Source of the DNA: Eledone cirrhosa
Lineage: Eukaryota
Direction: 5' to 3'
Length of the DNA stretch: 64,000 nucleotides
Assembly (NCBI GenBank): GCA_964016885.1
Contig: OZ024742.1
Location: 359,786,001 to 359,850,000 of the forward strand
Of this stretch, positions 12,301 through 13,910 are shown one piece after another. Numbering within the stretch: position 1 is the stretch's first letter; each line of letters opens with the position of its first letter. Made by a program: the position numbers and the translations under genes. The notes under the pieces are model-generated. The model was not told the DNA's origin, did not search any database, and saw nothing but the letters and a program-made list of their open reading frames with translations.

Positions 12301-13910
12301 TTAACTGTTTATGTGTGTCCATGGAGTGTGTTTTTGTTTGTGCTGTTTGCGTCGCTTGTGTTGGTGTTTGTGTGTTTGTTGCATTTTTGTTTATGTTATG
12401 TCTTTTCTTTTTTCTTTTTACTGGTCGGAAAGGCTCTCCCTCATGAGGCCTCGTCCGTGTTGTTGGGGAGGGGTACATTTTGGGGAGCTGTTATGAATGT
12501 GGGTGTTTCTGGAGTTGTTTTAGGTGGGGAGGGGTTGGGTAGGACTGTGTTTGTCGTTTGTTTTGTTGTCACTATTTTTTGTTGTTGTTGTTGTTGTTGT
12601 GGTGATGGTGGTGGTGGTGGTGGTGGTGGTGGTTGTGGTGATTGTTGTGCAGGTGTTGGCAGTAATGCCTTTTTGGGGCTAGTTAGCCGAGGACAGGAAG
12701 CTCTAAGGTGACCTCTGCTTAGGCAGTGGTAACATGAGGGCTGCCTACCCTCGACCGAAATGTTTATGTATATAAGTCGATCCAGCAGCACACGTTCCGG
12801 GATCCTAGCTATTCGTTCTGGTGTCATTTGAACCAGAATTTCCAGGCTAGTTCCGCTGAACAGGTCGCCGGAGGACTTACCTACCCTAACCCCCCCCCCC
12901 CCCCGATATTATTGTGTCTTTTTCTAGGTTTAAAAATCCACATAGTACCCACCAAATATCAATATTTGGTGTGATACTTTGGATTTTTATTTTCCGTGTT
13001 CTTTTCCCCATGTAAGTGGGGAAAAAGGTGAACAACGGTGACACAATTGGCGACACAGAGTATTTCTGTGCCGTCAGTTGGTCTTTCATCAGAAAGGATA
13101 AACTCCCGTAGAGTCTACCCTTCTGAGTGAAAGCAATGTCTTTTAAGGTATCTTCTAAAACCAACTCAATTTCGCCTTGTGAAAGTTGAGTCGGTTTTCG
13201 GGTTTTGTTTGAGACTGTCCTGAAAACCATAGTTTTCAAGGCAGCTTCTCTTCGCAAATCTGGGGGAGGGTTTATGGAGAATGATCCGTTCTCCCCAAAA
13301 GTTATGTACTGTCTGGCGTTATTCAAAAGCTCATTTGCATTTGAAATATCAATCGGAGTGTAGCTTACTGTTTTATTTACGGTTTTATTTACCGTTTTAT
13401 TCCTTGTTGCAGTTATTGGTCTTGTTGTTGTTGTTATTGTTATTATTGTTGGTGTTGTTTTCGTGCGTAGCATTGTTGTTGTTGTTGTTGCTGGTGCCGC
13501 TGGTTGTGTTGTTTTTGTTCATTGTTTCACACTTTTGGTTTGTTGCCATGGCAACGTCAAGTTCTCGGTCAGCAGGTGGAGAAAATCCTTCCCCTGGCTG
13601 ACCTTTGTCTTTGACATCTGCTACTATGATAGTGGCAGGGGGAAGCTGTAAGCAACTCTTCTCCTTTCCTCCTTCGAATGTTGGTGAAGAAGCTTCAGTC
13701 ATTTAAAAAAAAATGTTAGCTTTTCCCAAAAAAATTTTTTGTGAACTATTTCGCCTGAAAGCGTAGAATATTTTGAGAGACTGACCAGATCAAAATTTGA
13801 CCTGGCGGTCCCTCTACAAATTGGTATAAAAATGAAGGTTTCCAGTTAGGAATTTCTATAGAAATTTAGGCAGAACTTACCCAGCAAGTTTCACGCGTGT
13901 GTCCATCCCA
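9389..13910 (-). mobile_element. Tx1-like LINE copy T1: both ends present, frameshifted, ~1.07-kb RT deletion
   Basis: 5' end TGGGATGGACACACGCG; ORF1 pieces (13702-12060, CYHCLSRGHLRASC knuckle); APE pieces (GCVNVRG, VGDWN, SDHK); C-terminal CPRC..ETVAH; 3' end GTGGCTAATAAA; flanked by (GATA)n at 9311-9388 and 13911-14040. Confidence 0.92.

Follow-up and report, generated by a model that had tools for sequence, protein, structure and literature searches.

Splice-site-like signals in the 5' UTR of Tx1-like LINEs from Eledone cirrhosa suggest a short intron that is kept in genomic copies

In two-ORF LINEs of Eledone cirrhosa, we found intron signals that are kept over at least 11 diverged leader (5' UTR) types. 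Judged from the DNA, these signals may well represent a real short intron that is spliced conditionally, is likely throttled by a hairpin, and is retained in the template for retrotransposition; we hold this reading with moderate confidence. A retroelement is expected to lose an intron at the first round of copying, and the reason why Penelope-like elements keep theirs is stated to be unknown (PMC8557442). The families described here are young and near-identical and their predicted junctions are exact, so that splicing can be distinguished from docking of U1, and the role of a hairpin in deciding which transcript is copied is testable in them.

Results

The window, that is, the whole stretch of 64,000 nt that was analyzed, is contained in a 3.0-Gb assembly and carries minus-strand LINE copies arranged head to tail, with (TATC)n arrays between them. 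Copies T1, T2 and T8 have a type I leader, and T7 has a type II leader. The 5' end of T1 is a 30-nt putative exon 1 (13881–13910, minus strand) with a conserved GACRCG-type motif, upstream of which lies the (TATC)n target array (13911–14043). The 5' end of T7 is a 62-nt putative exon 1 (34440–34501, minus strand), and further (TATC)n arrays occupy 40233–40316 and 34503–34522. The T7 family is young, and 29 other loci differ from the first 306 nt of T7 at one place; TATC-type repeats were found directly upstream in 30 of 30 T7-type loci.

T7 has two ORFs on the minus strand. ORF1 (32461–34299), whose frame comprises 626 codons, contains a CCHC knuckle with a weak Pfam match (E = 0.019). ORF2 (29023–32464) encodes an APE endonuclease, an RT and a zf-RVT; its first codon is ATA, and a frameshift near its 5' end falls at a G run near 32255. 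Pfam returned Exo_endo_phos, RVT_1 and zf-RVT for T7, with zf-CCHC and zf-RVT scoring under the Pfam cut-offs, and L1 ORF2p was the sole solved relative (E = 1.5e-5). The Tx1 clade architecture (a zinc knuckle in ORF1; APE, RT and a zinc finger in ORF2) and a preference for a target sequence were both present. From this architecture and the repeat target, we call the elements Tx1-like, a label that also depends in part on what we take to be the features of that clade; the 41 closest of 73 homologues carried no names. The single ORF with RT and GIY-YIG of Penelope-like elements was not found in these elements, which are of a two-ORF, APE type. The ATA start of ORF2 (32464–32459 in T7) overlaps the ORF1 stop and recurs in a second copy, L057; other families use ATG.

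In the window (9300–21700 and 27900–40230) and at loci L066–L085 and L202–L221, elements inserted head to tail in (TATC)n arrays comprise at least eight types by 3' UTR and 11 by leader. The 3' ends of these LINEs consist of AATAAA and a few bases, without a poly(A) tail. Type I leaders are paired with two 3' UTR types, one in T1 and the other in T2 and T8, which suggests recombination.

Leader types were gathered by fetching the neighbours of the first loci and by searching with each new leader. Eleven were found: types I–VI are represented by several to dozens of loci each, type VII by four, and types VIII–XI by one copy each. All have a 5' motif and an AT-rich stretch, as well as a pair of predicted hairpins upstream of ORF1. 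A preliminary description of this DNA had regarded the UTR types in the window as unrelated; instead, all types align, with 34–72% identity among the ten compared, and are diverged homologues. The type IV leader has ACGCGTAYAAC in common with T8 and CATCGGCTCC with T7.

Every leader type contains a motif that fits a U2-type 5' donor, namely GTRAGT in ten types and GTAAGC in the single type X copy. Each type has a single GTRAG[TC], which occupies one of two alternative sites separated by about 30 nt: the nearer, about 20 nt from the 5' motif, in types I, VII, IX and X, and the farther, at about 50 nt, in types II–VI, VIII and XI. A weaker GTAAGA lies between the two sites in types V and VII. 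That the donor shifted only once was not rejected (p-AU 0.43), so that one or two events are to be counted; the UTR trees were poorly resolved.

Of 12,288 hexamers containing a single R/Y position, GT[AG]AGT alone was present in all nine types tested, and in 5,000 dinucleotide shuffles per type a donor with a YAG 55–72 nt away arose in 0.4–3.5%, or in 0.1–1.0% with YTRAY as well; these figures are non-independent draws, because the leader types are related. Only the six intronic bases of the donor are kept, and the three bases preceding them are free. Outside the leader and ORF1-end sites, eight full elements contained one sense GTRAGT versus 15.3 expected, an expectation that ignores reading-frame limits (GTRAGT holds a stop in one frame), which would lower it by at most one third; antisense GTRAGT occurred 19 times versus 26.7 expected. 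Within the UTR, conservation is lowest in the interior of the segment that follows the donor, with 42–52% identity between types versus 63% for the motif upstream of both donors.

In the type I copies T1 and T8, a 67-nt segment runs from GTAAGT to TGTAG at 13880–13814 and 40200–40134, respectively, with the donor at element position 31, as had been described. On the minus strand of T1, the donor occupies 13880–13875, CTAAC 13849–13845 and TAG 13816–13814, and the segment was kept in 30 of 30 T1 matches, the best of 1,276 candidates genome-wide. The corresponding segment of T2 (19371–19437, minus strand) begins with the mutated donor ATAAGT, again as described, and its subfamily reads CCAAAC, without CTAAC. 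T8 (minus strand) has CTAAC at 40162–40158 and, at 40156–40152, TTAAT, the branch-type candidate of the family. The claim that each copy keeps a CTAAC could not be upheld: among the 100 matches listed of 476, read by eye, the CTAAC of T8 was absent from all, most T8-type rows carried CTGATAAC, and T2-type rows carried CCAAAC with an intact donor. As read from these rows, the T8 CTAAC is a private change of that copy.

In T7, the intron-like segment (34380–34439, minus strand) contains GTAAGT at 34439–34434, CTAAC at 34397–34393 and TAG at 34382–34380, giving a length of 60 nt; a further TAG at 34349 would give 91 nt. These positions agree with the preliminary description. The 60-nt segment is homologous in place to 59–63-nt segments of types III–VI and XI. 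Across the larger set of copies, the donor held in all 11 types, and the branch motif proved to vary within type I.

Eight types (III, IV, V, VI, VII, IX, X and XI) carry YTRAY with its A 20–21 nt before a YAG, this branch consensus being a general one, not derived from the host, from whose own it may differ. The forms seen are TTGAC, TTAAC, CTAAC, TTGAT and TTAAT; only the places left free by the consensus vary, and the places flanking branch and acceptor vary only as Y, R, Y and Y. The YAG of the eight types lies 59–63 nt from the downstream donor or 92–94 nt from the upstream donor. In the 60-nt segment of T7, CTAAC stands at −15. Overall, a branch motif about 15–40 nt before a 3' YAG is found in types II–VII and IX–XI, and is not conserved across the type I subfamilies; the lone type VIII copy is an acceptor mutant. 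Loss of both branch motif and acceptor from type VII was considered and rejected, L162 and L163 being private mutants and L206 and L208 retaining TTGAC and CAG. The tract before the AG is T-rich in type I, and C-rich and predicted to be paired in types III–XI.

Two predicted hairpins follow. Hairpin 1, at 13775–13814 (minus strand) in T1, lies directly 3' of the type I acceptor, and its homologue contains the branch motif and the acceptor in types III–VII and IX–XI. Hairpin 2 is predicted at 13752–13763 in T1 and at 34341–34364 in T7 (both minus strand). The second, downstream acceptors proposed earlier do stand as AGs at 13755 and 34349, but they belong to hairpin 2, forming its loop in T1, and the AG is missing in types IV and VI: most of 20 type IV and 20 type VI loci read TTTTGGGGG at this site. 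The CAG of T1 at 13755 is TAG in most of 30 T1 loci.

Over ten rows, 85.8% of the pairs in the two hairpins were standard. Eight pairs had changed on both sides versus 4.1 in shuffles (5 of 500 were as high; other measures gave 12–59 of 500). Helix 1 comprises 14 pairs, of which five are invariant in the ten rows, and four of these five contain the branch U, the branch A, the acceptor A and the acceptor G; the probability of this under a random draw is 0.005, the rows being related. A search of Rfam returned two chance matches only, far below the gathering scores. Since branch and acceptor are both predicted to be paired, hairpin geometry alone could fix their spacing, which we count against an intron. 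T7 retains CTAAC, TAG and the 60-nt length although its outer stem is gone.

In type I, the old branch motif and AG have been lost and the hairpin has been kept, and the first YAG at intron distance is that of TGTAG, at 67 nt. Because TGTAG occurs in types III, VIII and IX as well, it may have been inherited passively; in addition, the type I branch motif is variable (CTAAC, TTGAC, CTGAT or CCAAAC). For both reasons, the 67-nt type I form has less support than the other form of the feature. Taken together, the shuffles, motif scan, hairpin conservation and donor avoidance bear out the earlier recognition of splice signals here: the signals look selected as such, beyond chance.

We searched the genome for spliced copies. 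The segment was kept in every copy examined, which agrees with the proposal that the template is unspliced here. The suggested search for copies precisely lacking the 67 nt found type I flanks 52–82 nt apart in 476 cases and 0–30 nt apart in none. Five places had a base other than A in third position after type I exon 1; none of them was a splice junction. For types III–VI and VIII, no spliced copy was found among 1,313 exon-2 matches, of which 26 had a base other than G before them; all 26 keep the segment and reflect point changes or 1-nt indels. Type VII junctions would end in G and would have been missed by this search. Spliced T7 copies and ORF2-less T7 copies were likewise not found, in searches made without a control count of copies. 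Over 1,789 copies, the 95% upper bound for spliced ones is 0.17%. In human L1, 116 of 6,609 copies (1.8%) are spliced (PMC5860796), a rate at which about 32 would be expected here versus none seen; genomic copies precisely lacking the intron, of the SpIRE type known for L1, were thus not found.

The preliminary description had ascribed retention to promoter elements within the intron. This explanation fares poorly, because no part of the UTR is less conserved than the interior of the segment and promoter-less spliced L1 still accumulates. L1 proteins bind their own RNA, and 5' UTR-spliced L1 RNA is copied once though the copy is promoter-less (PMC5860796); upon deletion of the Penelope intron, transcripts are still present (PMC2377424). 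Because promoter-less spliced L1 copies accumulate, an internal promoter cannot be the whole reason for the missing spliced copies, and their complete absence among the copies searched implies that leader-spliced RNA is no template here. Two possibilities are left: excision of the intron is confined to RNAs that are never copied, or it does not take place.

Aligned to the T7 5' end (34163–34500), contigs from four runs of unrecorded kind from one study (X1–X4) gave neither a joint nor a loose end. A 217-nt X4 contig spans 34254–34469 unbroken, with at least 31 letters on each side of the acceptors and 30 at the donor, although contigs drop rare forms and the unspliced form is expected under every model. 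X4, with 88 million letters versus about 1,400 million in X1–X3 and no cover above 34474, may be RNA. Near 34284, X4 showed what seemed to be a branch; it was attributed to the margin of a one-base bubble and discarded.

A second donor, GTAAGT, lies at the end of T7 ORF1 (32494–32499, minus strand); its counterparts are at 38248–38243 in T8 and 17552–17547 in T2, and T1 has GCGAGT at 12065–12060. A donor reading GTAAGT, GTAGGT, GTGAGT or GTTAGT was present 25–45 nt before ORF2 in every intact junction seen, and overlaps the ORF1 stop in most elements. At the other end, ORF2 terminates in an acceptor-like YAG/GT in nearly all ends seen (29021–29025, minus strand, in T7; also at 34797, 14308, 9625 and 19722). 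Donor and YAG/GT flank ORF2 about 3.4–3.5 kb apart (32499–29023 in T7, 38248–34795 in T8). Joining the ORF1-end donor to the ORF2 stop would bring a stop within three codons in only five of eight elements. A link between the 5' UTR signals and an intron spanning ORF2 is plausible, both being known from DNA signals only.

A TTTTCAG that resembles a strong acceptor, about 37 nt after the ORF1-end donor and 8 nt before the ORF2 ATG, was observed at L009, L023, L074, L206, L208, L218 and L221 and in the window (12060–12021). By accepting the leader donor, it could give rise to an ORF2-only RNA.

Discussion

If the 5' UTR signals mark a conditionally spliced intron, it would be retained in every copy examined and removed only from RNAs that are not copied. 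The hairpin would hide branch and acceptor, so that full-length RNA would stay unspliced and serve as template, and the spliced pool would be used for translation. In its simplest form this pool would be an ORF1-only message that had also lost ORF2, by splicing of the ORF1-end donor to the YAG that ends ORF2; lacking ORF2, such a message would not be copied in cis. A Penelope-like split, in which spliced RNA is translated and unspliced RNA is copied, would leave identical traces in the DNA. In the type I leaders (T1, T2 and T8), the TGTAG 67 nt from the moved donor would be the likely replacement for the lost acceptor. More tentatively, the elements may contain a two-intron switch, in which a hairpin-locked 5' UTR intron acts with an ORF2-spanning intron. 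ORF1 protein would be made from spliced RNA, copying would be restricted to unspliced RNA, and the UTR intron, instead of being lost, would have moved by about 30 nt in one lineage; this extension is possible, and we regard it as doubtful.

The main alternative, which we consider rather unlikely, is that nothing is excised: U1 docked on the donor would boost transcription or block premature polyadenylation in the A-rich ORF1, and YTRAY and AG would be kept within a hairpin that has another job. The donor is the one signal present in 11 of 11 types, no spliced copy was found among about 1,790, and 11 of the 12 elements that were scanned have AATAAA in their initial 2 kb, all of which suits docking; moreover, a splicing-independent role of U1 has been proposed for plant Copia donors (PMC5580714). 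Docking leaves unexplained, however, why four of the five invariant hairpin pairs hold branch and acceptor bases whose variation stays inside the splice consensus, and why T7 has a branch, an acceptor and a 60-nt length without the outer stem. Because branch and acceptor are conserved with this degeneracy, also in T7, we favour a conditional intron over no excision.

Transcription-factor sites that merely resemble splice sites, with rare and incidental splicing, are an improbable explanation. The location within 100 nt of the 5' end and the lack of spliced copies would suit such DNA promoter elements, and the human L1 donor does lie in a RUNX3 site (PMC5860796). However, three separate motifs here each fit one of three spliceosome consensuses, in the proper order and with the proper degeneracy, conservation of the donor is confined to its six intronic bases, and the donor motif is found again at the ORF1 end and is depleted from the rest of the sense strand. 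Motifs that arose by chance in AT-rich DNA and were passed on by descent are a very improbable explanation: the types are homologous and hence not independent, YTRAY is common in such DNA, and two details of the preliminary description proved private or structural, but the types are only 34–72% identical and GTRAGT, the single motif of 12,288 in all nine types, is found at a new site in the leaders from which the old one has gone.

Among the closest known systems is Penelope of D. virilis, whose 75-nt 5' UTR intron lies 46 nt from the start, is retained in genomic copies, and is needed for reporter protein and not for transcripts (PMC2377424). As in Penelope and Chlamys-3_cRei, the intron would be short, would lie a few dozen bases into the element within the internal-promoter region and would be kept genomically, with splice sites conserved between diverged elements (PMC2377424, PMC8557442). 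In contrast to our elements, whose putative intron is known from DNA signals, Penelope splicing has been seen by RT-PCR, with most transcripts spliced (PMC2377424). Penelope is also a one-ORF GIY-YIG element, whereas we describe a two-ORF APE-type LINE with branch and acceptor in a predicted hairpin.

The earlier statement that intron retention is unusual for L1 needs softening, as a conserved donor in the 5' UTR and splicing within that region are both known from human L1 (PMC5860796). Our elements resemble human L1 in being two-ORF LINEs with a conserved donor near the 5' end, and in L1 most RNA is unspliced, with RNA structure proposed to limit donor use (PMC5860796, PMC2896524). L1, however, splices 500–900 nt to several acceptors and leaves spliced copies, and its donor is explained by the RUNX3 site (PMC5860796); the unit here measures 59–94 nt, has a conserved branch-type motif, and left no spliced copy that we found. 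The donor near the end of a structural-protein ORF recalls the subgenomic GAG RNA of plant Ty1/Copia, in which splicing makes the structural-protein message and U1 has been proposed to protect full-length RNA (PMC5580714). Unlike the LINEs here, Copia are LTR elements with a coding-region intron, coupled to early termination and shown experimentally (PMC5580714).

Insertion of APE-RT LINEs into simple repeats is known from the Tx1 families Kibi in (TC)n and Koshi in (TTC)n and from crocodilian families in (TTCC)n/(TTTC)n (PMC4494074). The target here is (TATC)n, and the accessible part of that source mentions no intron for those families. Similarly, the accessible part of a Chlamydomonas preprint contains nothing on LINE introns. 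A literature search, whose scope lay outside subscription journals and Repbase reports, brought up no description of a conserved short 5' UTR intron for any Tx1 element.

Other features of the window

On the minus strand, a 315-codon frame at 43001–43948 with integrase zinc-binding and core domains is likely an LTR retrotransposon remnant, and a 355-codon frame with leucine-rich repeats at 61423–62490 is likely a host exon. A 435-codon open frame at 42–1349, also on the minus strand, had no Pfam match. A tandem array at 23779–25224 consists of 25 copies of a 57-nt unit with 93% matches.
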